NCBI GenBank assembly: GCA_016712635.1
Contig: JADJQS010000006.1
Location: 511,216-575,215 of the forward strand
DNA: 64,000 nucleotides
Direction: 5' to 3'
DNA from: Gammaproteobacteria bacterium
GTDB lineage: Bacteria > Pseudomonadota > Gammaproteobacteria > SZUA-140
The first letter of the stretch is position 1; each line of letters opens with the position of its first letter. Under the pieces are notes generated by a model. That model did not search any database and had not been told where the DNA came from. It saw nothing but the letters and a program-made list of their open reading frames with translations. Shown here piece by piece: positions 15,665 through 36,744 of this stretch. The position numbers and the translations under genes are program-made.

Positions 15665-15667
15665 AAT

Positions 15668-19353: not shown

Positions 19354-21120
19354 ATGAGCCTTGAAGCCTGGTTTACCGTTGCCGTCATCGGCCTCTGCCT
19401 CGGGCTGCTGATACACGGGCGCACGGCGCCGGACATCGTCATGATGGCCGGCCTGACCCTTCTGCTGGTGTCCGGCATACTGACGCCAACGGAAGCTCTT
19501 TCCGGTTTGTCGAATGAGGGCATGGTCACGGTGGGCATCATGTTCGTCATCGTGACCGGCCTGCGCGATACCGGCGCCATCGCCTGGATCGTGCAGCACC
19601 TGCTCGGTGTGCCGCGCTCGACCGCCCACGCCCAGATGCGCCTGATGACCCCGGTCGCCGCCATGAGCGCCTTCCTCAACAACACTCCGGTGGTCGCGAT
19701 GATGATCCCGGCGGTGCAGGACTGGGCGCGCCGCCACCGGATCTCCGTCTCCAAGCTGATGATCCCGCTGAGCTATGCCACCATCGCCGGCGGCACCTGT
19801 ACCCTGATCGGCACCAGCACGAATCTCGTTGTGAACGGCATGCTGATCAAGGAGACCGGCCACGGACTCAAGATGTTCGAGCTCGCCTGGGTGGGTATCC
19901 CGCTGGTGGTGGTGGTCTTCCTCGGCATCGTCCTGCTTAGCCGCTGGCTGCTGCCAGAGCGCAAGCCGGCCATCAGCCAGTTCGAGGAATCGCGCGGCTA
20001 TACCGTGGAGATGATGGTGGACTCCAGCGGGCCGCTGGTCGGCAAGACAGTGGAGCAGGCCGGCCTGCGCCACCTGCCGGGTCTGTATCTGATCGAGATC
20101 GACCGCGGCGAGCAGGTGCTGCCGGCCGTTTCGCCGCTCGAGCGGCTGCAGGCGAACGACCGGCTGATCTTCGCCGGGGCGGTGGAATCGGTCATCGACC
20201 TGCAGAAGATCCACGGCCTCTCCCCGGCCACCGACCAGATCTTCAAGCTGGGCATGCCACGGCCGGAACGCTGCCTGATCGAGGCGGTGATCTCCAACAG
20301 CGCCCCGCTGGTGGGCAAGAGCATCCGCGAGGGGCGCTTCCGCACCCTCTACAACGCGGCGGTCATCGCCGTCTCGCGCAGCGGCGAGCAGATCAAGGGC
20401 AAGATCGGCGACATCGTGCTGCGTCCGGGCGACACCCTGCTGCTGGAAGGGCACCCGTCCTTTGTTGAGCAGCAGCGCAATTCGCGTGACTTCTATCTGG
20501 TGAGCCGTCTGGCGGGCTCGACCCCGCTCAATCATGACAAGGCGCCGATCGCACTCGCGATCATGACCGCCATGGTGGCCGCCGCCGCCTTCGGCTGGCT
20601 CAGCATGCTGCAGGCGGCGCTGCTGGCCGCCGGCGCGATGTTGATTACCCGCTGTACGCGCGGCAGCAATGCGCGCGCAGCGGTGGACTGGCAGATCCTG
20701 ATCGTGATCGCCGCCTCGCTCGGCATCGGCAAGGCGCTGGAGACCACGGGTGCGGCGCAGGCAATGGCTGACGGTTTCCTGTCCTTCACCGGGGCAGGCC
20801 CGCTGATGGCGCTCTTCGTGGTCTACGTCATGACTGTGCTGTTCACCGAGATCGTGACCAACAATACCGCTGCTGCACTGATGTTTCCCATCGCGCTTGC
20901 GCTCAGCAAATCACTCGATGTGAGCTACATGCCCTTCATCATCACCATCACGGTGGCGGCTTCGATGAGCTTCGCCACTCCGATCGGGTACCAGACCAAC
21001 CTGATGGTGCTGGGTCCGGGCGGTTATCGCTTCACCGACTACATGAAACTTGGTATCCCGCTGACCGTCATGGTCGGGATACTGATTATGCTGATTGTCC
21101 CGCGGGTGTGGGCGTTCTGA
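19354..21120 (+). CDS. SLC13/DASS-family anion permease with two central TrkA-C (RCK_C) domains. Candidate sulfate or dicarboxylate transporter.
   Basis: 588 aa. N- and C-terminal multi-TM halves around two repeated roughly 70-aa TrkA-C-like segments (GKTVEQAGLRHLPGLYLIEIDRGEQ.. and GKSIREGRFRTLYNAAVIAVSRSGEQ..). Confidence 0.7.
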   Translation: MSLEAWFTVAVIGLCLGLLIHGRTAPDIVMMAGLTLLLVSGILTPTEALSGLSNEGMVTVGIMFVIVTGLRDTGAIAWIVQHLLGVPRSTAHAQMRLMTPVAAMSAFLNNTPVVAMMIPAVQDWARRHRISVSKLMIPLSYATIAGGTCTLIGTSTNLVVNGMLIKETGHGLKMFELAWVGIPLVVVVFLGIVLLSRWLLPERKPAISQFEESRGYTVEMMVDSSGPLVGKTVEQAGLRHLPGLYLIEIDRGEQVLPAVSPLERLQANDRLIFAGAVESVIDLQKIHGLSPATDQIFKLGMPRPERCLIEAVISNSAPLVGKSIREGRFRTLYNAAVIAVSRSGEQIKGKIGDIVLRPGDTLLLEGHPSFVEQQRNSRDFYLVSRLAGSTPLNHDKAPIALAIMTAMVAAAAFGWLSMLQAALLAAGAMLITRCTRGSNARAAVDWQILIVIAASLGIGKALETTGAAQAMADGFLSFTGAGPLMALFVVYVMTVLFTEIVTNNTAAALMFPIALALSKSLDVSYMPFIITITVAASMSFATPIGYQTNLMVLGPGGYRFTDYMKLGIPLTVMVGILIMLIVPRVWAF

Positions 21121-21149
21121 GCGCTGGGTAGTAAGTATTGAGGCAGTGT

Positions 21150-21967
21150 ATGAAACTGAGCGCCATATTATTCAGGCGACAGAAAACAGATCTTTATGAG
21201 TGGCGGCGCATAAAAGCAGGTAGCCGAAATTTTATATAGCGTTTCTGCTATGGCTGATATCGTTGAGAAAATGCTCACACAAGTGCTGCATGGACTATCT
21301 GGTCTTCTGGAGAGTCAATTAATAAAGGTATTCACATGTTGATAGGTGGCCGTTCTGAGACCTTATTTCTGGTCTGCCTGAAGAAACTGCTCTGTGACTC
21401 AAAGAATATACTGGATATTGGAACGCCAGAAAGATTTGCCAAGGAATTACGGCGTTACGAGAGCTTGTTTCTGGAAAGAACTATCTCGCAGCAGGATTTA
21501 ATCCAGAAATGAACAAGGGTCAGTACAATTGCGACTTACATCAAGATATAGAAATGATGACATTTGATGATTCATCATTTGATGCGGTCATTTGCCTAGA
21601 GGTACTCGAGCATGTCGCAAATCCATTCCAAGCCGTCCATGAAATAAAGCGCGTGTTGATAAACGGCGGAAAACTTCTGCTAACGGTTCCATTTCTCAGC
21701 CAGTATCATGGAAAAAGCGCTTTATCGCATGATCATTTAAATTATCCCGATTATTGGCGTTTTACGCATGAGGGTTTACATAAGCTGTTTCATGATTTCA
21801 CGAATCTTGAAGTGTTACCCCTGGATGGACCGATCGAATTCAGACTAAAGCAATTTTATCTCACTCGCTGGATAAATTACCCTGCTATTCGGAGAATCAT
21901 AGATCTAATAGACAAACCGGAGCGCGGCAAGGCCACAACGAGACATCTTGTTTACGGCATCAAATAA
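21150..21967 (+). pseudogene. Class I SAM-dependent methyltransferase broken into several short frames. Only the C-terminal 152-aa ORF (21509-21967) is intact.
   Basis: The C-terminal ORF has the post-motif-I region (FDAVICLEVLEHVANP..GGKLLLTVP). The N-terminal ILDIGT-containing piece is in another frame and ends in a stop at about 21507. Confidence 0.45.
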
Positions 21968-21972
21968 ACAAG

Positions 21973-23098
21973 ATGAAGATTCTAGTAGTGACGGGAATAT
22001 TCCCTCCGGATCATGGTGGTCCGGCGAGCTATGTGCCGGAGATTGCACAGGCGTTGTCTGTGAAACATACAATAGTGTCAGTAATAACCTTGAGTGACTT
22101 GTTGAACCACAGCGATGAAAACTATACGTTTCCGATCTTGAGAATTTTACGGAAAGCTAACAAGATTTCTCACATTTAGAATAGTTAATACCATAAGAAA
22201 ATATTCCAAAGAGGCAGATGTCATATTCGTCAATGGACTGATCTTCGAAAGCATCGTTGCATGCAAATTATTCTCAAGGAAACCGTTAGCCATAAAAATC
22301 GTTGGTGACCTGATTTGGGAAAAGGCGAAACTATCATCACCTGACACGGTATCCATCGATGAATTCCAGAGAAATGTGGCGGGTATAAAGTGGAAAATTT
22401 TGAAATGGATCTACAATAAGCTGATCAATCAGTGCGATGCCATTATCGTACCAAGCCTATATCTATGCAGGATTGTTAAAGGTTGGGGAATCGATACTGC
22501 AAAAATTAACGTCGTATACAACTCCGTGAAACCACAGTCTCTTCCATATGCTAATTATGGAGAAGGCGGCAATGTCGATTGCGTTACAGTGGCGAGATTG
22601 GTGCCTTGGAAGGGAATTAGTGAGCTTATAGATGTCGTTTGTGAAAACAAGTGGACTTTAAATGTTATCGGTGACGGCCCCCTAAAGGAGGATCTTGTAT
22701 GCAGAGCGCTCAAGCACAGTAATAATTCTGTACAATTTCTTGGTTATGTACCTCGTGATCAGGTGCATTCTGAAATTTCCAAAGCCAAGATATTCATCCT
22801 TAACTCGACATATGAGGGATTGCCACACATTGTTCTCGAGGCGAAACAAGCCGGAGTAGCCGTTATTGCAACCGCTGTTGGTGGAACACCTGAGACAATA
22901 ACAGATGGCGTAGATGGATATCTTATTCCCCCGGGGGACAATGCCATGCTAAGAGAGAAAATCGGATATTTGCTATCCAACAATGATAAGCGCACTCAGG
23001 TAGCATCGAAAGGTAGAGAACAGGTTTTGCATAACTTTTCATTTGAAACCATGGCTACCAAAACTGAGAAAATCCTTGAAAATACCCTGAATAGGTAA
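21973..23098 (+). pseudogene. GT4-family glycosyltransferase interrupted by a single frameshift near 22140-22180 (ORFs 21973-22179 and 22376-23098 plus an unlisted bridging segment).
   Basis: The N-terminal piece is KILVVTGIFPPDHGGPASYV. The C-terminal piece has EGLPHIVLEAKQAGVAVIATAVGGTPE. The bridging segment IVNTIRKYSKEADVIFVNG.. reads in the frame of the second ORF. Confidence 0.55.
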
Positions 23099-23106
23099 AC
23101 CGGCTG

Positions 23107-24306
23107 GTGCATATCATGGGTCATCCGATAAATATCCTCCTTCTCAGCAAAGATCCCACCTTATTCGAGCAAAATGATGCTGTCATCGGTGACACAAGAA
23201 AGCGACACATCGCCTACTCGAATATACTGCAATCAAGGTACCCCGGAAGCCAAATAAAAGTCATAACCTACACAAAGAGAACTTCGCTACTTCAGCATGA
23301 GAAAATCAATCAATCTCTCTCGATTTTCGGGACCGCCTCTGCTCACCGCATCACCTATTTGGCCGGTGTGATAAGAATGCTGCCTAAAACGCTGGAGGAT
23401 GGATGGCGGCCAGATATCGTCACTGCTCAGACCCCATGGGAAGAAGGCATCGTCGGATACGTGATATCAAGAATATTCAATGCTAAGTTCATACTGCAAA
23501 TCCATTTCGATTTGTTTTCTGAGCACTGGCGAAAAGAAAACAGATTTAACCTGTGGCGTAACTTGATTGCGCGCGCATTGATCAAACGATCTGATGCTGT
23601 TCGAGTAGTTTCAGAATTCCAAAAACACCAACTGGTGGATTGCCTCGGAAAACCATCCGGCACGATCCGGGTTATACCTGTAGGGGTGAATTTTCAGCCA
23701 TTAGATGGTGAAAAGTCTGCATTCAAACGAAAGATAGCTATTTCATTGGAGGCTAAAAAAGTTGTCTTGTTTGTTGGTAAATTTTATGCACCAAAAAATC
23801 TCCAACTATGGATTGATGTTGCGCAGCTTATTAGCCGTGATAACCCAGACGTAATGTTTGTCATGGCAGGCAACGGGCCCATGTTTGGTGAGATAAGGGA
23901 GGCGGTCATCAACCGTGGACTATCAGATAGATTTATTTTCTTGGGTTATGTCAAGCATGAGGAATTGCCCGGAATATATGCGGCCGCCGATGTCTTTCTA
24001 CTTACCTCATATTATGAGGGATTTGGCAGAGTCGTCCTTGAGGCCTATCTAGCCAAAATCCCTGTTGTGAGTACCAAATGCGCCGGAACACTCGACCTCA
24101 TCGAATCAGGTGTCACTGGAATATTAGCTCCTGTTGGTGATGCACAAACGTTAGCAGATGGTGTGATAAACCTGCTCTCCGCTGATGAACTGAGGATGTC
24201 TTATGGGACTAAGGGACATGCGAGAGTGAATGTGAAATATGGTTTTGCTAACTTATCAAATAAGTTAGTCGACTTCTGGGGAAGTGTTTGCGATGAGTCA
24301 ACCTGA
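23107..24306 (+). CDS. GT4-family glycosyltransferase.
   Basis: 399 aa. EGFGRVVLEAYLAKIPVVSTKCAGTLDLIESGVTG motif. Confidence 0.8.
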   Translation: MHIMGHPINILLLSKDPTLFEQNDAVIGDTRKRHIAYSNILQSRYPGSQIKVITYTKRTSLLQHEKINQSLSIFGTASAHRITYLAGVIRMLPKTLEDGWRPDIVTAQTPWEEGIVGYVISRIFNAKFILQIHFDLFSEHWRKENRFNLWRNLIARALIKRSDAVRVVSEFQKHQLVDCLGKPSGTIRVIPVGVNFQPLDGEKSAFKRKIAISLEAKKVVLFVGKFYAPKNLQLWIDVAQLISRDNPDVMFVMAGNGPMFGEIREAVINRGLSDRFIFLGYVKHEELPGIYAAADVFLLTSYYEGFGRVVLEAYLAKIPVVSTKCAGTLDLIESGVTGILAPVGDAQTLADGVINLLSADELRMSYGTKGHARVNVKYGFANLSNKLVDFWGSVCDEST

Positions 24307-25150
24307 TTTTATCGGTATAGGAGCGCAAAAATCAGGTACTTCATGGATTTATGCGTGCCTACATGTACATCCTCAGGTTTGTATACCGCGTAAGGAAATA
24401 CATTTTTTCAGCAGAGAGCGAAACTGGTCTAAAGGATATGATTGGTATGCAGGAAACTTTGACGGCTGTCATGCGGGGCAGGTAATCGGTGAATTCTCAA
24501 CTTCATACTTGGCGGATGAGTACACGCCTGCGAGGATCCATAATAAATTTCCTGATGTGAAACTGGTCGTGTCTCTACGCAATCCAATTGACAGAGCCTA
24601 TTCCAATTATATTAACGATATCAAAACAGGTATTGTGTCCAGTTCTACGGACTTTCTGGATGCGTTGGATAGCCATCCTGAATACATGAACCAAGGTCAG
24701 TACGCGCGCCAAGTAAATCGTTACCTAGATTATTTTAAGCCAGCTCAATTGCTGATATTAATCTACGAGGATAGTTTGATCGATCCCGGGGACTATATAA
24801 AAAAAATATACAGATTTCTCAATATTGACCATGAATTTATACCTGAATTTATTCGTACAAAGATAAATCCTGCCAGGATTCCACGTCATGTCTGGATTGA
24901 TTCCGGGATAAGGGCTGTCTCCAGTTACCTGAGATCAAACGGGTTTCGTACTCTATTCTGGCAAATAAAAAAATCAGGCCTCGCGGAAAGAATTCGGACA
25001 CTGAATACAAGAATGGATATCAGACGCGCTGATGTGATAGACACTCAAACTAGACATTATTTGTATGAGAAATATGATATCCAGTCAGAAATTTCTGCTA
25101 TTTCAAAAATAATTGGAAGAGATCTTATCGAGTGGCGCATTCAAACATAA
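24293..25150 (+). CDS. Carbohydrate sulfotransferase (PAPS-dependent sulfotransferase domain).
   Basis: 5'-PSB motif IGIGAQKSGTSW and 3'-PB motif VVSLRNPIDRAYSNY. The start is probably the second ATG (MSQPDF) overlapping the upstream GT stop. Confidence 0.8.
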   Translation: MSQPDFIGIGAQKSGTSWIYACLHVHPQVCIPRKEIHFFSRERNWSKGYDWYAGNFDGCHAGQVIGEFSTSYLADEYTPARIHNKFPDVKLVVSLRNPIDRAYSNYINDIKTGIVSSSTDFLDALDSHPEYMNQGQYARQVNRYLDYFKPAQLLILIYEDSLIDPGDYIKKIYRFLNIDHEFIPEFIRTKINPARIPRHVWIDSGIRAVSSYLRSNGFRTLFWQIKKSGLAERIRTLNTRMDIRRADVIDTQTRHYLYEKYDIQSEISAISKIIGRDLIEWRIQT

Positions 25151-26204
25151 CAGTGATTTGCCAGGTTGTTGACGAGCATGATCCTATTAATGCAACAGCT
25201 GTCAGATGGATTCGTGTTCTGTCACAAAAGAATCAGGTAGGGAAAGTAACTGTCCTGGCATTAAAAGTCGGTGAATATAACTTGCCTGATAATACGAGAG
25301 TGTTCTCGTTTAGAGGAAGAAATCGCATTTCTACTTTGATTAAGTTCTATTCCCTGATAATAAAAGGAGTGATGGTAAATAAAACGGATTATTATTTTAT
25401 CTATCAGGGTGGCCCATATCCGTTGCTACTTTTACCATTTAAGCTTTTGGTGGTAAAAACGTATACCATTGGAAAGCACATCCACATATTACCTTTATGA
25501 TGAAATTATACGCGCGTTACTGCGACACCGTTGTATTTACTTCAACAACCAATGCATTTCCCATGCAATTACCCAATCTCAGAGTTATTGGGCAGGGCGT
25601 TGATACAGAAAAATTTCGGGTGTTGGGAAAGGAAAGAAATAAAGATCTTGTCATTGTTGGCAGGATTGCCCCGGTCAAGCGCTTGGAAAGCATAATTTTC
25701 ATATTGACGCATTTGAATCTCAAGTACGGAATAGCTCCGAAAGTAGATTTATATGGTCCGATATCAGGACAGGATAAGAAATATAAGGAGCACATAGACC
25801 ATCTAATCTGTGAGCAGAAATTGAATGATCAGATTATTTTTCATGGGCCAGTTAGGCAGGATGCCCTCCCGGAGATATTTAATACCCACAAGCTCCTTGT
25901 CAACTTTTCTGATACTGCATTGGATAGAGTTGTCGTCGAAGCTATGGCCTGTGGATTGCCAGTGTTCTCGACGAATAACTGCGTTAGAGAGATCATCCCC
26001 GACGCTTATCATGATATTCTGACTTGTGTTGACCAACACGAAAACCATGCGCTGCTTGCTGAATTGATCTACTCACTGCTTTTGCTGCCTGATGCCATCA
26101 GAACCCATATCGGCAGGGACCTAAGAGAAATTATATTACATCATCATAGTGATATAACCCTGTTCGACAGAATGTTAGCCGAAATCGGAAACTATGAAAA
26201 ATAA
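25132..26204 (+). pseudogene. GT4-family glycosyltransferase split over two frames (25132-25500 and 25497-26204).
   Basis: The N-domain piece ends ..GKHIHILPL*. The C-domain piece (VVEAMACGLPVFSTNN) starts in a different frame. Together about 357 aa, the size of a whole GT4. Confidence 0.5.
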
Positions 26205-26994
26205 ATTCTCGATAAAAATTGGCGTCAGAAACTCATTCATCATTGCCAATGGAATGTATAAAAACATCAGAAACTCACTGCCTGATAAGCGGATTGTCGC
26301 AATTCACGATATCAATGACTCGATCAGATTCCGAGATAAAATGCATTGGCTGCGCGAAACATATGACATTCTTAGTTTGGGCGATTTGCTCGAAACTAGC
26401 ATAGGCAACAAAACACAGATCGCCATAACATTTGATGACGGCTATCTGTCATGGCGTGATAATGTTATTCCGGTGCTGGTGGATCTCAATATTCCTGCCA
26501 CTTTTTTTATTTGCTCTGGTTTTGTTGGTCTTGATGAAATTGATGCAAGAAAGTTTGCTGTTAATTGCTTCAGGAGAAAACAGAAGCTGCTTCCACTTCA
26601 AGCAGAGCACATCAGATCGATATCTGATCATAAATTGTTCGAGATAGGTGGACACACGGCGCATCACCTGGATCTCGGAAAAGAGTATCCCACAGAAATT
26701 CTGATAGATGAAATTATAAGAGACCGTGAACTATTAGAGGATTGGACAGGCGATGATGTACGATGGTTCGCATATCCATTTGGAGGAAGAATTAATGTCT
26801 GTAATCAGACAAAAGAATTTGTCAGAAATACTGGTTATAGCGCTGCGTTTACTATCATTCCTAGATCAGCGAACGAGATCGAGGATTTCTATGAAATAGG
26901 GAGGGATAGCCTGGACATCTATGCATCAGATCTTTTATGGAGAAACTGGCTTAACGGCGGTTACGACATGATTAAGAAAACAAGGATTTCGTAA
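26194..26994 (+). CDS. Polysaccharide deacetylase (NodB homology, CE4 family).
   Basis: ITFDDGY, FFICSGFVG, GGHTAHH motifs. Confidence 0.8.
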   Translation: MKNKFSIKIGVRNSFIIANGMYKNIRNSLPDKRIVAIHDINDSIRFRDKMHWLRETYDILSLGDLLETSIGNKTQIAITFDDGYLSWRDNVIPVLVDLNIPATFFICSGFVGLDEIDARKFAVNCFRRKQKLLPLQAEHIRSISDHKLFEIGGHTAHHLDLGKEYPTEILIDEIIRDRELLEDWTGDDVRWFAYPFGGRINVCNQTKEFVRNTGYSAAFTIIPRSANEIEDFYEIGRDSLDIYASDLLWRNWLNGGYDMIKKTRIS

Positions 26995-27602
26995 TGAACA
27001 AGTTTGAATATGTGAGGAATATTATCCTTTCTGAACCAGTGAATAACAAAAGTCTGCTCGATGTCGGATGCAGAGGATGTGAATTAAAGTCTTATGTCGG
27101 AGATGTGGTTGCATACAAAGGTGTGGACCTATTCCAAAATCCATCGAATAGCGTTGACTACGTGTTGGATGTAGAAAATGGACTTCCCATGGAAAATAGT
27201 TCAAGTGACTATGTCGTAGCCTTGGATTTGGTTGAACATCTTAATGATTTTCAAGGCGGCTTAGAAGAATTACTGAGGGTGGCGCGAGAGAAACTCATCG
27301 TAATGCTTCCAAATATGGCTCACTGGGTTTTCAGGAAGGAATTCCTTTTTCATGGAAGGATCGGTGCAAAATATGATCTTTCATATGGAATGGGAAAAGA
27401 CCGACATCGCTGGTTCACTGTGTTGCCACAGACGGATGAATATATAAAAAGGTTTTGTGACGAAAATAATCTCGAGTTACAGGTCATCTGGTTTAATGGA
27501 GGAAGAAAGAAAGAACTATTCTATCGAGTAACGAAATTCCTGGGTTTTCCGCCATCAATAGGCGTGTGGGCATCACTTTATATAATGAAAAAAATGTCAT
27601 AA
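26994..27602 (+). CDS. Class I SAM-dependent methyltransferase.
   Basis: LLDVGCRGCE motif I, VVALDLVEHL. 202 aa. Confidence 0.7.
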   Translation: MNKFEYVRNIILSEPVNNKSLLDVGCRGCELKSYVGDVVAYKGVDLFQNPSNSVDYVLDVENGLPMENSSSDYVVALDLVEHLNDFQGGLEELLRVAREKLIVMLPNMAHWVFRKEFLFHGRIGAKYDLSYGMGKDRHRWFTVLPQTDEYIKRFCDENNLELQVIWFNGGRKKELFYRVTKFLGFPPSIGVWASLYIMKKMS

Positions 27603-27796
27603 ATATATCGTGCGTACACCATCATGCATGATGGAAACGAGAGCAGAGTTTCGTCGTAGAATTGAGTCGTTATCTGCGTCTAAGCACACCTTTACTATTC
27701 ATGGATTGTCTGTGTCGCATTAATCGATGCATTTACCCATCGCATATGGTCACTGGTCTCTCTCTTTTGATTCTTACTGGAAAATAAGAGAATCAA

Positions 27797-29059
27797 ATGC
27801 GTAAGATAGTATCAGATGTTGGGTACATGGGGTTCTCACAACTCCTTGTCGCACTGTCGCAGATAGCGCTCCAAGTCTATGTGGTCAGGACCACGACAGT
27901 TTATGAATATGGTGAGTACATAGGCAGTCTAGTCATAGTGACGTTAGTTGAAGCAATTTTTGTCGCAAGAGGCGGTGAACTGGCTTTGCGATATGTCGGC
28001 ACGCACTGGAATAAGAGTGATTTCATCACTGCTCGGCAATACGCAACAGCGATAATACGCATCGATAAATATGTAAACTGGTTACTTTATATCTTGCTCG
28101 TTACTTTGGCATTTGCGACCTATGAGGTGCTGAATTTAAATCTATATTACGTGATATTTCTTTCGCTTGTTATTCCAGCTCAGGTAGGTTACGGAGTGTA
28201 TAAAAGTCTATTCATAATTTCATCTAGACTCAGGGGGCAATCTGTATTTGAAATAATCTTCGCCGTCGTGCAGATATCTACAGGAGCCATTGGCGTTTAT
28301 TTATTCAGCATCCCTGGTTTGATTGCATCAGTTATTGGAACAGCTATGGTGAAGACTGTTTTAGCTAGGGTTATGACGGAAAGTTGGTGGCCTGATAACG
28401 TCAAAGGTCTGGATTCCCTTTCCACAAATAATAATATCAATATAACAACCTGGTGGAGCGACAGTATACATTCTATTATGCGAAATTCATTTTTCTCTGG
28501 GTCTAATCAAATAGACATAATCTTGCTCAATATATTCAGAGGTGCAGAAACAGTAGCTTTGTATAAAGTCGCAAAATCGTTATCTGCAATTCCTATAAAA
28601 ATTGCCGCCCCTGTCTGGGCGGCCTTACGTCCTCGAATCATGAAATCATGGAACAACGGCGACAGGGCGAGATTAGTCAAGATAATATTGACACCTTCAT
28701 TATCCATGCTGGCAGTTCTTCCCGTTATGCTGCTGCCTGCTTCGCTGTATGGTGATAAGTTTATTGCCATTATATACGGGCCTGACTATGCGTCCGCGAT
28801 AGACTCTATTCTTGTATTGCTCGTCGGTGTATGGATCTTTAATGTGACTACAGGTTGGTTCAGGTTCTGGATATTAATAATTAAGGATAGATTAGCAAGT
28901 ACAAATATATCGGCAATCCAGTTTTTTATGCTGCTAGTTCTAGGTCTGCTGTACGGAAAGGAAACAATTGTTTCAATGTCCGAGGTTGTGAGCGTAACCA
29001 TGATTGTCGTCAGCGTGATGTGCTGGTTTGAATTATTCAGAAAACTAAAAACGCTGTGA
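27797..29059 (+). CDS. wzx: Wzx-type O-unit flippase (MOP / polysaccharide biosynthesis protein family).
   Basis: 420 aa, about 12 predicted TM segments, hydrophobic throughout. Position within a GT cluster. Confidence 0.65.
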   Translation: MRKIVSDVGYMGFSQLLVALSQIALQVYVVRTTTVYEYGEYIGSLVIVTLVEAIFVARGGELALRYVGTHWNKSDFITARQYATAIIRIDKYVNWLLYILLVTLAFATYEVLNLNLYYVIFLSLVIPAQVGYGVYKSLFIISSRLRGQSVFEIIFAVVQISTGAIGVYLFSIPGLIASVIGTAMVKTVLARVMTESWWPDNVKGLDSLSTNNNINITTWWSDSIHSIMRNSFFSGSNQIDIILLNIFRGAETVALYKVAKSLSAIPIKIAAPVWAALRPRIMKSWNNGDRARLVKIILTPSLSMLAVLPVMLLPASLYGDKFIAIIYGPDYASAIDSILVLLVGVWIFNVTTGWFRFWILIIKDRLASTNISAIQFFMLLVLGLLYGKETIVSMSEVVSVTMIVVSVMCWFELFRKLKTL

Positions 29060-29184
29060 ACTCTCGTATTCAATGGCGAGAGAAGCTGCTATCGGCCATT
29101 GTTGGGTATCTAGAGGTCAATCAATCATGAGAAATCTGGCCATTAGTAACCCATTGTTTGTCTCATTAGTTCTCCCTCGTAGTA

Positions 29185-30315
29185 TTGATTGGTAATGTCC
29201 TTCTCAGCATTTCGAATACTGTATCCATGTTAAATATTATGTTCATTGTGCTAGCACATCTACTTGTCATTTACTCATTATTTAATAACGGTGTGCAACA
29301 GCGTGACTGGCTGAATCCAATAAACATAATTCTTCTGATTGGAATGGTGCGATTCAGTCTGCCTCTGCTTCTACTTCAATTTGGATCTCCAAGTATCGAG
29401 ATGTTCCAAAAGATGAATATCGGGCAAGGTGAGAACTGGCGTCATGCAAATATTCTTGCACTAGTCGGGTTGCTGGGCGTCGCTGCCGGTTGGAACATAA
29501 CGATTAGACCTTGGAGAAAAGCATGTCCCCATAGGCGGGAACTACCAAAGAGCGTTGCTTATTTGGCTGTGACAGGGATGCTAGCAGGCGCAATATTTTT
29601 GTCAGTTTTTATAGAAAGTAATTCTACACTCGAGGAAGCCATATTGACAGGCAGCTTCAGAGGTACTGATATACAGGCAGGCACCGGCAAGTATTTCCAT
29701 CTAGGCTTAATGTTAATTTCATGTAGCGTAATCCTCTCTTCGTATCTCATTAAACGAGGAAATGTATCCTATATGGTCGCACTCCTACCCGTGCTCATCG
29801 CCACGATTTTTTATTTCATTCTCGGTGGCAGGACCAGAGCGATTACACCGTTAATAGCTGGACTACTTGTAATTTGGTATGAAAGAGAAAATTCAACATT
29901 TACAGCAAAGAATACGTTTGTTTTGTTTATTCTTTTTCTTGGTTTGCTCATGTTTTATAGCGGGTCAGTGCTTTATCGTGCACGACTCGGATTGGAAGGG
30001 TTTGCTCATGGCCTGTCTTTTATAGGTCTTGTGCAATATCTGTCTACAGCGATATGGATGGAAATAGGTCAGTTGCATGCATTGGCCGGGTCTCTTCTAG
30101 TTGGGCCTGGCGTACTGGGAGGGTTGACATTTACCAAATTGCTTTGGCCTATCAGTGAGTTTCTCAATATACCCGGTAATAGTACAGGCATATATCTTGC
30201 GGAGACGCTTGTTTATCACAGCATACGCAGTCGGTGTATTTTTCCTGTCGAAGCTGCTAGGGTCACTGATAAAAAAATCATAATGATGAAGCAGAATATG
30301 ATTGTCAGAAAATAA
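29185..30315 (+). CDS. Wzy-like O-antigen polymerase (multi-TM membrane protein).
   Basis: 376 aa, highly hydrophobic with a larger loop region. Adjacent to wzx. No firm motif, so the assignment is by context. Confidence 0.5.
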   Translation: MIGNVLLSISNTVSMLNIMFIVLAHLLVIYSLFNNGVQQRDWLNPINIILLIGMVRFSLPLLLLQFGSPSIEMFQKMNIGQGENWRHANILALVGLLGVAAGWNITIRPWRKACPHRRELPKSVAYLAVTGMLAGAIFLSVFIESNSTLEEAILTGSFRGTDIQAGTGKYFHLGLMLISCSVILSSYLIKRGNVSYMVALLPVLIATIFYFILGGRTRAITPLIAGLLVIWYERENSTFTAKNTFVLFILFLGLLMFYSGSVLYRARLGLEGFAHGLSFIGLVQYLSTAIWMEIGQLHALAGSLLVGPGVLGGLTFTKLLWPISEFLNIPGNSTGIYLAETLVYHSIRSRCIFPVEAARVTDKKIIMMKQNMIVRK

Positions 30316-30349
30316 AATGGCTTCCAAATGACCAGTAAGGTTCGCCACG

Positions 30350-31303
30350 TTATGTGAGAATATCGTCATCGCTATTCTTCAAATATTCGAATGATTTCCT
30401 AATGCCATCCTCTAACTTGATAAGTTCTCTTTTTAACATCGATCTCATTATCGAGTTATCAGGCTTTCTTCGCGACATATCGCCTTCCTTCAATGGAGGG
30501 TAGTGTACAATCCTTGATCTTGAGTTTGTGATTTTCAAAACGAGCTTGGCCAGTTCTAAAATGGTGATTTCATTATCACTGCCGACATTCACCACGTCGT
30601 TTATACACAAATCGTTGGTGATAACGGTTTCGGTAAAATCAAGATTATCGTCAATGTAGCAGAATGTTCGTGTTTGTGAGCCATCACCATAAATGATCAA
30701 ATCCTCATTTCTTGACGCCCAATAGATAAATCTTGAAACGACAAAATCCTTGCTTTGAAGAGGCCCATATGTGTTGAAGAATCTGAAGATTGTGTACTTC
30801 AATCCATATTCTTTCTCATAAGTGCGGCAAAACGCCTCGCCGATATTCTTAACGATCGCATAAGGGAGCCTGGAATTCAGCGGTGTGGTTGCTTCTCTTT
30901 GTGGAATCTCAACCGGCTCACCATAGACTTCAGAGGAAGATGAGTATATGACACGTTCTACTCCCGTATTTTTTGCCAAGTCCAGTATATTTTTAATTCC
31001 TTCTATATCGTTTAAGACTAGTTTGGGGTTGGTCAATGTGCGCTGGACACCCACTACTGCGGCATAATGAAAAATTAAATCGAAATTGCCAGAAATAACC
31101 ACTGGAGCGATGTCGTTAAAATCATTGACATTGGCCTTGATAAATTTCCAATTATTATATGTACGGTCTGGCAATTTACCGGCCATGCCCGTAGAGAGAT
31201 CGTCGACGATAACGACCTTGTATTCTTGGTTTTGTACAAGGCGTCTGGCCAAGCTTCCGCCAATGTTACCCGCGCCACCGGTTATTAGAATGTTTTTTCT
31301 CAT
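30350..31303 (-). CDS. NAD-dependent epimerase/dehydratase (extended SDR; UDP-sugar 4-epimerase / UDP-glucuronate decarboxylase-like).
   Basis: ILITGGAGNIGGSLARRL Rossmann motif and a YxxxK-type catalytic region (YAIVKNIGE). 317 aa. Confidence 0.75.
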   Translation of the reverse strand: MRKNILITGGAGNIGGSLARRLVQNQEYKVVIVDDLSTGMAGKLPDRTYNNWKFIKANVNDFNDIAPVVISGNFDLIFHYAAVVGVQRTLTNPKLVLNDIEGIKNILDLAKNTGVERVIYSSSSEVYGEPVEIPQREATTPLNSRLPYAIVKNIGEAFCRTYEKEYGLKYTIFRFFNTYGPLQSKDFVVSRFIYWASRNEDLIIYGDGSQTRTFCYIDDNLDFTETVITNDLCINDVVNVGSDNEITILELAKLVLKITNSRSRIVHYPPLKEGDMSRRKPDNSIMRSMLKRELIKLEDGIRKSFEYLKNSDDDILT

Positions 31304-31467
31304 AATGTTTCCTGTTAATAGTTTATGGTTTTTCTCTTAACTCCAGTATGTACTTGTAGACTTTCATTGTCTCGGTGTACATCTTTTCGCGCTGAATTTT
31401 CCCGTCACAAGCTCTTTTCCCTTGCTACCGTATCCGAAGCGGATCGCCTGGCTTCCCGCCAGAATAC

Positions 31468-32457
31468 TCAGCTTCCTGCGAACGATTCAGGATCGTTGGG
31501 TGGTATCAACATCCCGCTCTCGTTATCAGCGACAATTTCAGGTATTGCGCTCACATTGGTTGCGATAACTGGCTTTCCTGAGGACATAGCTTCAAGTAGT
31601 ACTAGACCAAATCCCTCGGTAACTGAGGTTAGGGCAAATATATCGAATGCATTAATAACCAGAGGAATGTCTTGACGAAAGCCAGCCCAGATCACATGAT
31701 CCTTGAGTCCAAGCTTCTCAGAGTGACTTCTTAGCTTTTCGTGAAGCGGACCTGATCCCACGATTACTAGTTTTGTCTTGGGGGTAGTCACCTGATTTAT
31801 GAATTTGGCATAACCGGTTAGCATGACGTCGATTGCTTTGGCTGGCACCAAGCGTGCTACGCTTCCAATTAATAATGTCGGGCCGTTGCCCCCCCACTCA
31901 GCGCGGAGATTTTCTACTTTTTCTCGATCAACATTCTGGAAGCAGTGAGGATTAAGACCATAATGTACTACAGTGATTCGCCGGTTGGTTGAGGCTGGCC
32001 AGCGCTTTGAGTAGTATCGTTTGACTGAATCCGAGATCGCGATGATCCCGTCTGCACGACTGACCACCCACCTTTCAAGCATGTTTGCTCCCGGACCACC
32101 ATAAAAACGAGATTCGTTATGCCTCGAGATCAGGAATGGCAACTGCGGGGATTTCAATAATGCAATGCGAGCGTATAATTCGGCGGGCGCCAAATGAGCA
32201 TGAACGATATGAGGAGCGAAACTTGCAATCGCATTTTTGAGTCTCCAAAGAGGCCCGAGTTCCCCGTACTGCGATAATCCCAGAGGAAAGACGTGCACCC
32301 CAAGACTCTCTAGTTCTGCTTTCCAATAGCCATCACCCTTTAGATATGCGCAAGCGACTTCGCAGCCAAAATTCCTGATTTGTCCTTCGATCAAATCTCG
32401 TAGATGATTCTCTGCGCCGCCGCGGTTTATCGTTGTAATAATATGCAATATTCTCAT
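31468..32457 (-). CDS. GT4-family glycosyltransferase.
   Basis: MRILHIITTINRGGAENHL N-terminus and EGFGLVLLEAMSSGKPVIATNVSAIPEIV C-terminal motif. Confidence 0.8.
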   Translation of the reverse strand: MRILHIITTINRGGAENHLRDLIEGQIRNFGCEVACAYLKGDGYWKAELESLGVHVFPLGLSQYGELGPLWRLKNAIASFAPHIVHAHLAPAELYARIALLKSPQLPFLISRHNESRFYGGPGANMLERWVVSRADGIIAISDSVKRYYSKRWPASTNRRITVVHYGLNPHCFQNVDREKVENLRAEWGGNGPTLLIGSVARLVPAKAIDVMLTGYAKFINQVTTPKTKLVIVGSGPLHEKLRSHSEKLGLKDHVIWAGFRQDIPLVINAFDIFALTSVTEGFGLVLLEAMSSGKPVIATNVSAIPEIVADNESGMLIPPNDPESFAGS

Positions 32458-32551
32458 GATAAATAGCCTTATCTCCTGTTTCTATATTAGTATAAATCAT
32501 AAGACGATGTCATTGTGCTGATCAAGATTTGCACGGCAACGAGATAAGAAC

Positions 32552-33397
32552 ATGCAGATTCCTTGGTGGGCGAAACTCTGTGCAAAAATGGCTCTATCTA
32601 GATTGCCATTTGGGTATTCCGTCTGGCAGAAACTTGGTCTGTTCCGGCATGGCAATATGGATGCTGGTGAGTATGCAATCCGGATTTTTCAAAGCCATAT
32701 GGAGAAATCGTGTTTTCAACAACGGCTTGCTGGAAAGACAATTCTAGAACTAGGTCCGGGTGACAGTCTCGCGACCGCAATAATTGCCGCAGGATATGGC
32801 GCGCGGTCTATACTCATTGATAGTGGTCGGTTTATACGTAAGGATATCAACTCCTATGTTGAATTAGTGGGCGCGCTTGCCAAGAGAAACTTGCCTCACA
32901 TAGACATCTCATGCTGTCGTGATGTAGATGAAATTCTTGAACTGTGCAATTCCAGGTATATGACAGAGGGGTTGGACAGCCTCAGAATGATCGAAAAGGA
33001 ATCAGTAGACCTAATTTTCTCCCAAGCCGTGCTTGAACATATAAGAAGATACGATTTTCTGGAGACAATGAGAGAATGCCGTAGAATCCTCCGGGAAGGC
33101 GGGGTCTGTTCGCACCAAGTTGATCTTCGCGATCATCTGGGTGGATCCCTGAATAATCTGCGCTTCAGTGAACGGGTCTGGGAGTCTGCTTTTTTTTCAA
33201 AGTCAGGATTCTATACCAACCGGATCCAATACAGCGAAATGATTGGGCTATTTGCGCAGGCTGGTTTTAAAGTTGAAGTAACCGATATCTGTCGTTGGGA
33301 CACACCGCCAACTCGGAGAAGCCGGCTTTCTACGGAGTTCATCAGAATACCGGATGAAGAACTGTGTATATCTATGTTCGACGTATTGCTACGCTAA
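32552..33397 (+). CDS. Class I SAM-dependent methyltransferase.
   Basis: ILELGPGDS motif I, DLIFSQAVLEHI. Confidence 0.7.
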   Translation: MQIPWWAKLCAKMALSRLPFGYSVWQKLGLFRHGNMDAGEYAIRIFQSHMEKSCFQQRLAGKTILELGPGDSLATAIIAAGYGARSILIDSGRFIRKDINSYVELVGALAKRNLPHIDISCCRDVDEILELCNSRYMTEGLDSLRMIEKESVDLIFSQAVLEHIRRYDFLETMRECRRILREGGVCSHQVDLRDHLGGSLNNLRFSERVWESAFFSKSGFYTNRIQYSEMIGLFAQAGFKVEVTDICRWDTPPTRRSRLSTEFIRIPDEELCISMFDVLLR

Positions 33398-34543
33398 CTA
33401 TGATTCTCCGTATATGAAAGCAAACAGAGAAAAAAAACTTCTGTACTATATAACAGAAGACTGGTATTTCGTTTCTCATCGACTTCCATTGGCGATTTCT
33501 GCAAAGAATGCTGGATACGATGTTTGCATCGTGACGCGTGTGAGAAACTACGGAAATATTATACGTTCCTCTGGATTAAAACTCATTCCTTTTGAAAATT
33601 CACGAAGCAGTATAAATCCTCTGAGAGAACTTCTGACCCTGTTCAGGTTGATTGCATTGTTTATGCGCGAAAAGCCGGATATCGTTCACAACGTTGCCAT
33701 AAAACCCGTTCTGTACGGTGGAATAGCCGCACGCTTGGTTAAGACACCACAAGTAGTCAATGCGCTCGCGGGCATGGGTTGATATTCGCATCTAGCACCG
33801 GCTTGGCCCGCTGGATTAAGCCTGCAGCTCGCCAAATGCTCAGGTTCGTGCTTACCTCTGGAACCGTACTAGTACAGAATCAAGATGACGCAGCATTTCT
33901 AACCCAGATAGGTGTGCCTCGGGCGAATATACGACGTATCGCTGGTGCCGGGGTTGATCTGACACTGTTCCACGCAAGCCCCGAGAAGACTGGATTGATT
34001 ACGGTTGTTCTACCAGCACGATTGCTCTGGGATAAAGGCGTGGGGGAGTTTGTCGAGGCTGCGCGCATCATCAGAAAGCAGGGAATAAACGCGCATTTTG
34101 CGCTTGCAGGAGAATCCGACCATGCCAATCCCGCATCGGTCTCACCGAAGACTATTGCTGAGTGGGTTTTGGAAGGAGTTGTTGACCATCTCGGGTGGGT
34201 TGAAAACATGCCGTCTCTATTTGCTCAGAGCCATATAGTATGCTTGCCTTCGTATTATGGTGAAGGAATCCCGAAATCGCTGATTGAGGCTGCAGCGTCT
34301 GGACGGCCTATCGTCACGACCGATATGCCAGGATGTCGTGAGATCGTCCGGCATAATGAAAATGGATTTCTGGTCCCCCCCCGCAATGCTAAAGCACTCG
34401 CGAAAGCGCTGGTGCGCCTAATAGAAGACCCCGTGCTTCGACAACAGATGGGGGCGCAGAGTCGCATTCGCGCCGAGAAAGAGTACGGAGTGGAAACAGT
34501 CAATCGGCAGACGCTAGCACTCTATGAGGAGGCTCTGAGTTGA
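33354..34543 (+). pseudogene. WbuB-like GT4 glycosyltransferase interrupted by one frameshift at about 33775-33782 (ORFs 33354-33782 and 33779-34543).
   Basis: ..NALAGMG* in one frame continues as IFASSTGLARW.. in the next, matching the conserved GLGY(I)F block of this GT subfamily. The C-terminus has EGIPKSLIEAAASGRPIVTTDMPGCREIV. Confidence 0.55.
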
Positions 34544-35505
34544 GGGTGTTAGTTACCGGTGCTACTGGGTTTGTCGGTTCTTCATTGGTAGACCAGCTGG
34601 TTCGTGATGGGATTCACGATGTCAGGGTTGCATTGAGGAGAGACAGGCCTAGTTTGAGCGATCAAGTTGAGCATGTCATCGTCGGTGAAGTCGCCGGGGA
34701 AACAGTTTGGCGACAGGCGCTGCGCGGTATCGATACAGTGATTCATCTCGCCGCCCGGGTACACGTCATGACAGACAGCGTAGCGAATTCTTCCGCAGAA
34801 TATCACCGCGTAAATGTTGATGGCACCCTTAACCTCGTTCGCCAGGCAGTAGATGCTGACGTCAAGCGTATTATTTATCTGAGCTCAATCAAGGTGAACG
34901 GGGAAGAGACATTGGCAGGCCAGCCGTACTATGCAGATGATCAACCTTCGCCAGCAGGATCATATGCTGTATCCAAATATCGAGCAGAGGAAGGGATCCG
35001 TCGATTAATTTCGGGGGCTGATATGAGTGCTGTAATAATTCGCCCTACTTTGGTATACGGAGCTGGAGTGAAGGGAAATTTTCTCAACATGATGCACTGG
35101 CTATCCCGCGGTATACCTATGCCTTTAGGATCGATTCACAATAGCCGCAGCCTTGTAGCGCTCGATAATTTGGTAGATCTAATTATCAAATGTATTGAGC
35201 ATCCTGCAGCTGCAGATCAAGTATTCCTCGCTGGAGATGGCGAGGACTTATCCACTACAGAACTTCTTCGACGGCTTGGGGGTTTTCTTGGCAAACCCGC
35301 CCGTCTCGTGCCGTTTCCACATGCGGTCTTGAACATGATTGCTCGCGTATCCGGAAGACGTGATGTTGCACAACGATTGCTGACCTCGCTACAGATCGAT
35401 ATCAGGAAAAACTGGGAAATCCTCGGCTGGAAACCGCCGGTCACTCTGAATCAGGGTTTGGAAACTGTCACACGCTGGTACTTAAATGAATCACGAAGTT
35501 ACTGA
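34540..35505 (+). CDS. NAD-dependent epimerase/dehydratase (WbpV/WbpK-like UDP-sugar epimerase or reductase).
   Basis: VLVTGATGFVGSSLVDQL Rossmann, YAVSKYRAE catalytic YxxxK. Position before wbpL-wbpM as in Pseudomonas O-antigen loci. Confidence 0.75.
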   Translation: MRVLVTGATGFVGSSLVDQLVRDGIHDVRVALRRDRPSLSDQVEHVIVGEVAGETVWRQALRGIDTVIHLAARVHVMTDSVANSSAEYHRVNVDGTLNLVRQAVDADVKRIIYLSSIKVNGEETLAGQPYYADDQPSPAGSYAVSKYRAEEGIRRLISGADMSAVIIRPTLVYGAGVKGNFLNMMHWLSRGIPMPLGSIHNSRSLVALDNLVDLIIKCIEHPAAADQVFLAGDGEDLSTTELLRRLGGFLGKPARLVPFPHAVLNMIARVSGRRDVAQRLLTSLQIDIRKNWEILGWKPPVTLNQGLETVTRWYLNESRSY

Positions 35506-35559: not shown

Positions 35560-36744
35560 ATGATCATAGGCGTAATTCTCATCACGTTTTGTACGGCAGG
35601 ACTTGTAACTTATCTTCTGACACATGCTAGCGGTCGATTTCAGATAATAGATTACCCTAATAACCGCTCTCTTCATAGCACACCTATCCTACGTACTGGC
35701 GGACTGGCGATCTGGGCTGGGATGATCACTGGAACCGCAACTGTAGTCCTGATGCTTGAATGGAAGTACGAAATCGCATGGATTGCATGTGCGGCGACTG
35801 TCGTCGGACTTGTCTCGTTCTTCGATGACCGCGCACACGTCCCGGCATATATCAGATTAGCTATCCATCTCATCGCCGCTGCATTGTTATTGAGCGGACA
35901 GTTGGATCTGACATCGATTGAAATTCCTGGTATCAGCACCGAATTGGCCCTCGGAACAGGAATGTTGATTATTGCGCTGTTCATCACCTGGAATATCAAT
36001 CTGTACAACTTTATGGATGGAATGGACGGCATTGCAGGCGGCATGACGATAGCCGGTTTTGTAACTCTGGGGCTGCTCGGTCATCTCGCGGGCGATGACT
36101 ATTACGCGGTGATCTGCTGGGTAATCGCCGCCGCTTCTGCAGGTTTCCTGGTATGGAACTTCCCGCCTGCGCGGATATTCATGGGCGATGTCGGATCATC
36201 CACCTTGGGTCTGCTGGTTGCCGCGATGTCTCTATGGGCGGATCGGGCCGATCTTTTCCCGCTTTGGCTGTCCGTCCTCATCTTTTCTCCTTTTGTGGTT
36301 GACGCCACCCTGACGCTCGCGCGCCGGACCCTGAAAGGCGAACGCATCTGGGAGGCGCATCGCGATCATTACTACCAGCGCCTGGTCCGGGCGGGATGGA
36401 GCCATCGCCGTACTGTCTTGTGGGAATATGGCCTGATGGTGATATGCAGTGCCTGCGCACTGCTGGCCTTTCACGCGCCCGTGGTGATGCAATGGTCGAT
36501 CCTGGGGGCGATGGCGTGCGTTTATATTGCAGCGATAGTTGCGGTGCGCCGTATCGAGGTGCGTAGAGCGATCGGGCAGGGTTCAGAAGTTCCTCGTAGC
36601 TCATACGTGGAGGATTTTTGGATGGAAACCCTACTGGGCAATCTATCGTGTTCTACTGAAGTATTAGTCCGAATATCCAATATCCCTTCGTTTCAGATTC
36701 AAATTAACATCCGGGTTGTATTGCAGTACAATACGCGCCACTGA
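35560..36744 (+). CDS. wbpL: Undecaprenyl-phosphate HexNAc-1-phosphate transferase (WbpL/WecA, MraY-like GT family). The C-terminal end of the model is uncertain.
   Basis: Multi-TM. NLYNFMDGMDGIAGG and FMGDVGSSTLG motifs. Confidence 0.8.
   Translation: MIIGVILITFCTAGLVTYLLTHASGRFQIIDYPNNRSLHSTPILRTGGLAIWAGMITGTATVVLMLEWKYEIAWIACAATVVGLVSFFDDRAHVPAYIRLAIHLIAAALLLSGQLDLTSIEIPGISTELALGTGMLIIALFITWNINLYNFMDGMDGIAGGMTIAGFVTLGLLGHLAGDDYYAVICWVIAAASAGFLVWNFPPARIFMGDVGSSTLGLLVAAMSLWADRADLFPLWLSVLIFSPFVVDATLTLARRTLKGERIWEAHRDHYYQRLVRAGWSHRRTVLWEYGLMVICSACALLAFHAPVVMQWSILGAMACVYIAAIVAVRRIEVRRAIGQGSEVPRSSYVEDFWMETLLGNLSCSTEVLVRISNIPSFQIQINIRVVLQYNTRH

Follow-up and report, generated by a model that had tools for sequence, protein, structure and literature searches.

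We analyzed a window of 64,000 nt (the whole stretch of DNA referred to below) from the Gammaproteobacteria bacterium assembly GCA_016712635.1 (GTDB lineage SZUA-140; contig JADJQS010000006.1, positions 511,216 to 575,215 of the forward strand), which carries a polysaccharide gene cluster extending from wzz (11.6 kb) to wbpM/galU (39.5 kb). The center of this cluster is an AT-rich block, and comparison with related genomes indicates that this block is a variable cassette exchanged as a unit at a fixed chromosomal site. Window genes were assigned by Pfam and NCBIfam scans plus homologue search (Table 1). The cluster begins at wzz, far upstream of the point where GC drops, a start that an earlier note made from the sequence of this DNA had missed. 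To its left lie a 2-hydroxyacid dehydrogenase gene, pheA, a DAHP synthase gene, tyrA, aroA, cmk, rpsA, an HU/IHF-family gene, lapB, and pyrF, the last two separating the HU/IHF-family gene from wzz; to its right lie rne, rluC, a HAD hydrolase gene, sppA, maf, yceD, plsX, fabH, fabD, fabG, fabF, and pabB.

The cassette comprises 15 genes, including those for five GT4-type glycosyltransferases (GT1 to GT5), three methyltransferases (MT1 to MT3), a sulfotransferase, a CE4 deacetylase, Wzx, Wzy, and two SDR enzymes (epi1 and epi2). They are ordered MT1, GT1, GT2, sulfotransferase, GT3, CE4, MT2, Wzx, Wzy, epi1, GT4, MT3, GT5, and epi2, with epi1 and the gene GT4 on the minus strand. This inventory agrees with that given previously except that six GT4-type glycosyltransferases had been counted, a figure which probably arose from split open reading frames (ORFs), as three of the five GT4-type genes are each broken into two ORFs in the window. 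High-GC genes flank the cassette as had been claimed, with manC, gmd, fcl, gmhB, gmhA, cysC, and the permease gene upstream and wbpL, wbpM, and galU downstream.

Base composition was far from uniform across the window. In 1-kb windows GC was 0.57-0.70 between 1 and 21 kb, 0.39-0.46 between 21 and 34 kb, 0.47-0.54 between 34 and 37 kb, and 0.53-0.69 beyond. The left edge is steep, with 200-nt GC values of 0.69 at 20.6-20.8 kb, 0.515 at 21.0-21.2 kb, 0.44 at 21.2-21.4 kb, and 0.39 at 21.4-21.6 kb, and the right edge is a slope in 200-nt GC from ~33.8 to 37.2 kb. GC at third codon positions (GC3) was 0.37-0.51 in island genes vs. 0.73-0.87 in flank genes, a contrast that precludes the GC drop being an effect of protein composition; along wbpL GC3 rises from 0.36 to 0.72, and in wbpM it is 0.81. 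Additionally, the dinucleotide-signature distance between island and flank was ~87, compared with 6-27 between flank segments. Sliding-window GC, GC3, and dinucleotide signature all confirmed the earlier observation that GC falls after the stop codon of the SLC13 permease gene. Of the edges proposed at 21.1 and 35.5 kb, the left one stood, since homology to relatives is lost exactly at the permease stop codon at 21120, and the right one had to be moved to ~36.15-36.2 kb, inside wbpL, on the basis of homology and divergence. The AT-rich variable block thus runs from 21121 to ~36150. Beyond it, the wbpL-wbpM intergenic region (36600-36800) forms a sharp AT-rich notch (GC 0.395) amid GC-rich coding sequence. 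The best promoter-like match of our scan falls in this gap (36704-36732, 10/12) and is possibly an independent wbpM promoter; the scan as a whole was at chance level, and the promoter and terminator counts, at or under shuffle expectation, were uninformative.

Contigs of a sister strain (SRR31776074; L001/L091/L092 and L089) cover window positions 17144-31635 and 31922-36642 at >99% identity, and the divergence between the two strains is distributed very unevenly. Exact copies of the WbpM, Gmd, GalU, and epi2 proteins were not on record, which confined the flank comparison to ~4 kb. The flanks (17144-20700 and 36151-36642) differed at 58 of 4041 sites (1.44%), whereas the block between them (20701-36150) differed at 27 of 15163 (0.18%), an 8-fold lower value (odds ratio 8.2, p = 9e-21). 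This low-divergence block coincides with the low-GC block, and at its right end divergence from L089 goes from 0% to 2% at ~36150 inside wbpL. All 24 differences in the permease gene were synonymous, so that the flank divergence represents real evolutionary distance. The simplest reading of these sequence comparisons is that both lineages came to share the cassette through recombination later than their split, with crossovers in the terminal 400 nt of the permease gene and within wbpL. A point against this reading is that low island divergence could in principle reflect recombination importing diverged flanks instead of transfer of the island; whichever part moved, the breakpoints sit at the island edges. 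This exact version of the cassette was found only in runs SRR31776073 and SRR31776074. We also observed that nine of the 27 island substitutions crowd into positions 21972-22119, at the 5' end of GT1 and just upstream of a 2-nt deletion. Those within the GT1 part of this patch comprise five synonymous and two non-synonymous changes, and the patch may be a short recombination tract from a third allele.

A search with the permease protein yielded 70 loci from species-representative genomes, the nearest being metagenome-assembled genomes (MAGs) of uncultured Gammaproteobacteria/Steroidobacteraceae. In L006, where the permease is 96% identical at the amino acid level and the cysC-permease region 92.4% identical at the nucleotide level, the alignment ends at window position 21120, no more than a few bases from the TGA codon. 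The next 10 kb of L006 have a GC of 0.39-0.48 and no nucleotide similarity to the window, and encode a Polysacc_synt flippase, an APH-like kinase, two methyltransferases, a DUF2334 protein, a GT4-type transferase, Wzy_C, a second GT4-type transferase, and a methyltransferase; this last methyltransferase is the only product resembling one of the window cassette (MT3, ~47% amino acid identity). Similarity is likewise lost a few bases from the TGA in L002 (permease 90% identical), which is syntenic from lapB to the permease gene and then carries a NusG-family paralogue and a MarR-type regulator (L002 positions 11858-12882). The NusG paralogue is a candidate RfaH/UpxY-like antiterminator; the window holds neither such a regulator nor an ops element. 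The ops/JUMPstart motif GGCGGTAG was absent from the cluster, and its three matches elsewhere were at chance level. At the other end of the cassette, the metagenome contig L072 encodes a WbpM with 90% amino acid identity and is 87% identical at the nucleotide level from window position 36805 on, with only the C-terminal two-thirds of its wbpL product conserved (~69%); upstream of this it carries an epi2 homologue (45%), preceded by genes for GT2-family and GT4-family transferases. The more distant relatives L003, L004, L005, and L008 kept cysC and the permease gene, with no recognizable cassette homology beyond them. Judged from these alignments and gene contents, at least three or four distinct variable cores fill the same interval in related genomes. 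The island is therefore not common to all relatives, and the differing content at the same site in L006, L072, and L002 supports the earlier proposal of a variable, horizontally exchanged, serotype-determining cassette.

One diverged copy of the window cassette was found. Among 5.8 billion proteins searched, the closest non-identical Wzx was 62% identical and lay on L095 (SRR1027651), followed by one at 43%. The high-GC flank of L095 (gmhB 84%, gmhA 74%, and cysC 92% amino acid identity) indicates a host at roughly the distance of L002. From MT1 to GT5, all 13 genes of the L095 cassette are colinear with those of the window, the minus-strand epimerase-glycosyltransferase pair included, with 53-83% protein and ~64-72% nucleotide identity and a GC3 of 0.37-0.42. 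The most conserved gene was epi1 (82.5% amino acid identity, GC3 0.45), and no relation was evident between conservation and GC3 within the cassette. The locus carrying the 43% Wzx homologue (P0003) was rejected as a member of this cassette family because its cluster is differently organized, leaving the window/SRR3177607x version and L095 as the whole family. In addition, L095 lacks the SLC13 gene and epi2, and between cysC and its cassette high-GC DNA holds a truncated rmlC (dTDP-4-dehydrorhamnose 3,5-epimerase; L095 positions 1757-2090, PF00908 positions 6-78 of 168), which looks like a footprint of earlier gene content or of a past cassette replacement at this junction.

The L095 cassette bears on two questions. 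The pair at 30350-32457 does lie on the minus strand as previously described, and a mosaic origin had been proposed for it; we reject this origin, as the same pair occupies the same place in the L095 cassette despite 53-83% identity, so that the inversion is an ancestral and stable trait of the cassette type. The GC3 of the pair (0.45) is like that of its neighbors. Furthermore, the nearer relative L006 bears an unrelated cassette and the more distant L095 a homologous one, an incongruence as expected for exchangeable cassettes or long-lived polymorphism.

The second question is the meaning of the low GC. Atypical GC in polysaccharide clusters is commonly taken as a sign of foreign DNA (PMC11641403), and a GC3 of ~0.40 against ~0.80 in the flanks, together with the atypical dinucleotide signature, would fit DNA lately acquired from a remote low-GC donor and not yet ameliorated. 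We regard such an import as unlikely. The L095 cassette, at ~65% nucleotide identity, matches that of the window in GC3 and occupies the corresponding locus of a high-GC relative; the unrelated L006 cassette is equally AT-rich; exchange requires homologous flanks, so donors should be high-GC relatives; and the protein search found no close Wzx homologue outside the lineage. A GC3 of ~0.40 kept through near-saturation of silent sites in hosts with a GC3 of ~0.8 is thus not simply a mark of recent import. Our tentative suggestion, offered with rather low confidence, is that AT-richness is a long-lived, locally maintained state of the locus and not a mark of foreign origin. Cassette interiors, having no homologous partner in most strains, would escape GC-biased gene conversion or selection for GC and would drift to an AT-biased mutational equilibrium; the rise of GC3 across wbpL coincides with the point at which alleles can be aligned again.

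The mode of exchange can be addressed at the island edges. There was no tRNA gene in the 64-kb window, there were no direct or inverted repeats at the island edges beyond chance-level short ones, and there were no integrase, transposase, or conjugation genes among the ORFs scanned, which argues for homologous replacement and not site-specific insertion. A self-mobile genomic island moving by site-specific recombination would agree with the abrupt left GC boundary, but the lack of tRNA, flanking repeats, and integrase domains, and a right edge that is a gradient within conserved wbpL, effectively refute it, and we hold it to be extremely improbable. Remnant junction sequences, which it had been proposed to look for at both edges, were not found in the window, homology stopping at the permease stop codon. 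Taken together, the sequence comparisons indicate that the cassette is swapped as a unit by homologous recombination, with crossovers in the 3' end of the permease gene and in wbpL.

Table 1. Features of the polysaccharide cluster and lesions of the cassette region. Positions are those of the window; lesions are defined against the intact sister copy (L001 and associated contigs).
Feature	Position	Strand	Evidence and remarks
HU/IHF-family gene	8438..8872		PF00216; past cmk and rpsA
wzz, chain-length regulator (PCP-1 type)	11606..12706	+	PF02706 37.6 bits (cutoff 25.5); 366 amino acids (aa), kinase domain absent; GC3 0.73
manC, gmd, PF05635 gene, fcl (GDP-L-fucose module)	12859..17088	+	Full-length Pfam matches; syntenic in L002, L003, L008
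PF05635 gene, small "23S rRNA IVP" (intervening sequence protein, four-helix-bundle)	15734..16096	+	Between gmd and fcl
gmhB, gmhA (heptose-phosphate phosphatase, sedoheptulose-7-P isomerase)	17277..18518	+	HAD, SIS_2; 74-84% aa identity in L002, L095
cysC, adenosine-5'-phosphosulfate (APS) kinase (synthesis of 3'-phosphoadenosine-5'-phosphosulfate, PAPS)	18649..19260	+	PF01583 226 bits
SLC13/DASS anion symporter with TrkA_C domains (putative sulfate uptake)	19354..21120	+	TIGR00785; Pfam CitMHS/Na_sulph_symp/TrkA_C
MT1, S-adenosylmethionine (SAM) methyltransferase	21336..21967	+	210 aa when intact; window ORF matches C-terminal half of Methyltransf_11 only; intact in L001
GT1, GT4-family glycosyltransferase	21973..23098	+	375 aa when intact; split in window
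GT2, GT4-family glycosyltransferase	23116..24306	+	396 aa, intact; Glycos_transf_1, Glyco_transf_4; same length in L001
PAPS-dependent carbohydrate sulfotransferase	24293..25150	+	285 aa, intact; PF00685 75.5 bits
GT3, GT4-family glycosyltransferase	25132..26204	+	357 aa when intact; split in window
CE4 polysaccharide deacetylase, MT2 methyltransferase	26194..27602	+	266 aa and 202 aa, intact; PF01522 72.5 bits; MetW, Methyltransf_11
Wzx flippase	27797..29059	+	420 aa, intact; homologues with PF01943; NCBI MBK8163348.1, locus tag IPK65_09425
Wzy repeat-unit polymerase	29073..30283	+	480 aa when intact; TIGR04370 43 bits (cutoff 40), on intact L001 copy
epi1, SDR nucleotide-sugar epimerase/dehydratase	30350..31303	-	317 aa, intact; PF01370 169 bits
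GT4, GT4-family glycosyltransferase	31323..32457	-	~377 aa when intact; C-terminus lost in window
MT3 methyltransferase	32552..33397	+	281 aa, intact; sole cassette gene with a homologue in the L006 cassette
GT5, GT4-family glycosyltransferase	33414..34543	+	376 aa when intact; split in window; last gene common with L095 cassette
epi2, SDR epimerase/reductase	34540..35505	+	321 aa; GC3 0.46, intermediate GC; absent in L095, 45% identical in L072
wbpL, polyprenyl-phosphate HexNAc-1-P transferase (WecA/MraY family)	35560..36744	+	346 aa when intact; PF00953 127 bits
wbpM (membrane-anchored UDP-GlcNAc 4,6-dehydratase family), galU	36798..39559	+	PF02719 395 bits; NTP_transferase
MT1 lesion	21472		-1 nt
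GT1 lesion	22170		-2 nt (CG)
GT3 lesion	25444		-1 nt
wzy lesion	29174		+1 nt
wzy lesion	30213		-233 bp
GT4 lesion	31386		-1 nt
GT4 lesion	31472		-1 nt
GT5 lesion	33780		-1 nt
wbpL lesion	36589		-1 nt, last codons
wbpL lesion	36615		-1 nt, last codons

Some assignments need a further word. Wzx had no direct Pfam or NCBIfam match, its identification coming from full-length homologues (33-62% identity) that bear PF01943, one of which is named an O-antigen export protein. For Wzy a weak precomputed PF01901 match is also listed, and wbpL also matches TIGR02380 (WecA-like), under the equivalog cutoff. The N-terminal part of WbpM corresponds to the membrane/CoA_binding_3 region, and L092 and L093 both encode a deacetylase identical to that of the window.

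Comparison with the intact sister copy also revealed frameshifts or truncations in six of the 15 cassette genes of the window and an altered wbpL tail, which the earlier note had not reported; the wbpL deletions change and lengthen the extreme C-terminus only. The island has nine small indels, eight of them deletions, compared with 24 coding substitutions. Of these substitutions 18 were synonymous and six non-synonymous (random expectation 22.5% synonymous, p = 7e-8), and this proportion of 75% implies that the cassette genes evolved under purifying selection. We consider it likely that the small indels are technical, arising from consensus error where a long-read metagenome assembly crosses a strain-variable region; the 233-bp wzy deletion may be real. 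The density of about one deletion-biased indel per 1.7 kb would fit an unpolished Nanopore consensus. The Wzx protein is identical to MBK8163348.1, which comes from a 584-kb MAG contig. We presume this accession, and with it the assembly, to belong to a Danish activated-sludge MAG set built from Nanopore reads, a link that a text search did not confirm. That set was produced with Nanopore R9.4.1 reads and CANU; polishing used Racon, then Medaka twice, and finally Racon once with Illumina reads. Its authors caution readers about platform errors, regions of low coverage, and population bins that are chimeric (PMC8012365).

Several observations weigh against a purely technical origin. None of ~33 flank genes over 48 kb was broken, as judged by full profile coverage (Fisher p = 1e-4), the indels lie outside long homopolymers, and a 233-bp deletion is atypical of consensus error. 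These same points favor true decay, in which one inactivating hit, such as the 233-bp wzy deletion, would have made the O-antigen genes dispensable and let more frameshifts build up, leading to a rough or semi-rough strain: all ten lesions (in MT1, GT1, GT3, the gene GT4 twice, GT5, wzy twice, and the wbpL tail) fall within 21.4-36.7 kb, the 2-nt CG deletion is also unlike a homopolymer error, and the deletion bias equally fits natural pseudogene decay. However, nine small indels per 24 coding substitutions far exceed the ratio of neutral decay, the substitutions carry no sign of relaxed selection, and short-read polishing would fail in a strain-variable island if the assembly is Nanopore-based as presumed. 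We therefore see decay as the less probable alternative, though one with a real chance of being correct. The cryptic O-antigen cluster of Yersinia pestis, which carries multiple frameshifts relative to that of Y. pseudotuberculosis O:1b, is alike in that small indels and one larger deletion disrupt several genes of an O-antigen cluster that is otherwise nearly unchanged, whereas here the indel/substitution ratio and the probable long-read origin favor a technical cause. Consensus error being the preferred explanation of the small indels, the cassette is probably functional in the living organism.

With regard to function, gene families and locus context make it very probable that the AT-rich block is the variable core that sets product structure in a Wzx/Wzy-dependent heteropolysaccharide cluster, and the product is most likely O-antigen. 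All parts of the Wzx/Wzy pathway are present (Wzx, Wzy, an initiating transferase, and a kinase-less Wzz), with pathway steps assigned by family. WbpM, epi1, and epi2 would supply modified N-acetylhexosamine (HexNAc)-type precursors, and ManC, Gmd, and Fcl would supply GDP-fucose. WbpL would prime undecaprenyl phosphate, the five GT4-type transferases would build a repeat unit of up to ~6 sugars, and the three methyltransferases, the CE4 deacetylase, and the PAPS-dependent sulfotransferase would decorate it. Wzx would then flip the unit, Wzy polymerize it, and Wzz set the chain length.

An alternative is that the cluster makes a capsule or secreted exopolysaccharide (EPS) and not a lipopolysaccharide (LPS) O-antigen. 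We place O-antigen ahead of other Wzy-dependent polysaccharides on the type of wzz and the locus context, and several points count against that choice and for the capsule or EPS: the Wzx/Wzy machinery is common to group 1/4 capsules and many EPS systems, EPS production is common in the metagenomes from which the relatives derive, and the WaaL ligase was not identified among the ORFs scanned in the window, where the Wzy_C family was also unmatched. This alternative nevertheless appears quite improbable, as the short Wzz (PF02706 only) comes without a Wzc kinase, Wza and Wzb were not found in the 64 kb, and the 3' wbpL-wbpM end and the rpsA/HU/IHF position mirror the Pseudomonas aeruginosa O-specific antigen (OSA) locus (PMC4600120).

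For the presumed O-antigen, the gene content predicts a sulfated, O-methylated, partly de-N-acetylated polysaccharide. The nearest solved relatives of the sulfotransferase are the bacterial structure 3rnl, heparan-sulfate 3-O-sulfotransferases, and N-deacetylase/N-sulfotransferase (NDST), and its alignment to 3rnl and the 3-O-sulfotransferases shows both PAPS-binding motifs (GAQKSGTSW and LRNPIDRAYS) to be conserved. The presence of a sulfotransferase alongside PAPS genes has been described as the hallmark of clusters for sulfated polysaccharides (PMC11641403). PAPS would come via the adjacent cysC, which adjoins the variable region in L002-L006, L008, and L095 as well, perhaps with sulfate entering through the SLC13 symporter. 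Weighing against such a dedicated supply, the window lacks an ATP sulfurylase gene (cysDN or sat), SLC13 is missing from L095 although the sulfotransferase cassette is present there, which weakens the tie between symporter and sulfation, and L006 keeps cysC and SLC13 with no sulfotransferase seen in the 10 kb available. The absence of SLC13 in L095 and its presence in L006 thus make the link of the symporter to sulfation uncertain; cysC is always adjacent. We also observed that the CE4 deacetylase gene (26194-26994) is situated two genes away from the sulfotransferase gene, and it is pure speculation that the two act in an NDST-like order, de-N-acetylation followed by sulfation.

The upstream flank holds further irregularities. 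The PF05635 gene has a GC3 of 0.53 vs. 0.77 for its neighbors, and its position is filled in L002 and L003 at 49-50% amino acid identity, compared with 78-92% for gmd and fcl there; it is a second, tiny, low-GC, quickly evolving insert in the conserved flank. In the gap between cysC and the permease gene (19264-19353), 1-nt and 7-nt indels relative to the sister strain are the sole indels outside the island. In addition, gene calls on the Logan contig report a spurious minus-strand ORF (18616-19263) in place of cysC.

Among known systems, the closest likeness is to the P. aeruginosa OSA locus, in which GC is lower than in the genome. Both are Wzx/Wzy clusters that start with wzz and end with wbpL and a conserved wbpM, both lie downstream of cmk, rpsA, and an HU/IHF-family gene, and both have divergent cassettes at a fixed site that are replaced by homologous recombination; in P. 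aeruginosa, divergent clusters occupy a fixed ihfB/himD-wbpM site and recombination switches the serotype (PMC4600120). The present locus differs in having lapB and pyrF between the HU/IHF-family gene and wzz, a precursor block (manC, gmd, fcl, gmhBA, cysC, SLC13) ahead of the variable part, a much larger GC contrast (GC3 0.40 vs. 0.80), cassette content without a counterpart above 62% identity in public data, and an uncultured Steroidobacteraceae-like gammaproteobacterium as host. Enterobacterial rfb/O-antigen clusters (galF...gnd) are low in GC and flanked by JUMPstart/ops elements. They share AT-rich central wzx, wzy, and glycosyltransferase genes exchanged by recombination between conserved flanks, whereas the locus described here has no ops/JUMPstart element and other flanking genes. 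The sulfated clusters of the marine bacteria Vibrio sp. KMM 8419 and Cobetia marina (PMC11641403, PMC11766843) likewise combine a sulfotransferase with one or more PAPS genes in a single cluster of atypical GC and strain-variable content; the Vibrio capsular polysaccharide uses an ABC-transporter/Kps route and cysNDC, as opposed to the Wzx/Wzy route here, with only cysC and SLC13 nearby.

The locus is therefore a well-supported textbook case of a swappable polysaccharide cassette and not a new kind of system. It is a clean case of a surface-polysaccharide cassette swapped by recombination and documented entirely from metagenomes, and its predicted dedicated PAPS supply is relevant to the little-studied bacterial polysaccharide sulfotransferases. 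It also carries a warning that strain-variable islands in long-read MAGs can bear clusters of frameshifts which mimic pseudogenization. A GC3 contrast this large and long-lived among high-GC relatives argues against equating low GC with recent foreign DNA, and if the AT-richness is indeed maintained locally, loci of this type would offer a natural measure of whatever force keeps bacterial genomes GC-rich.

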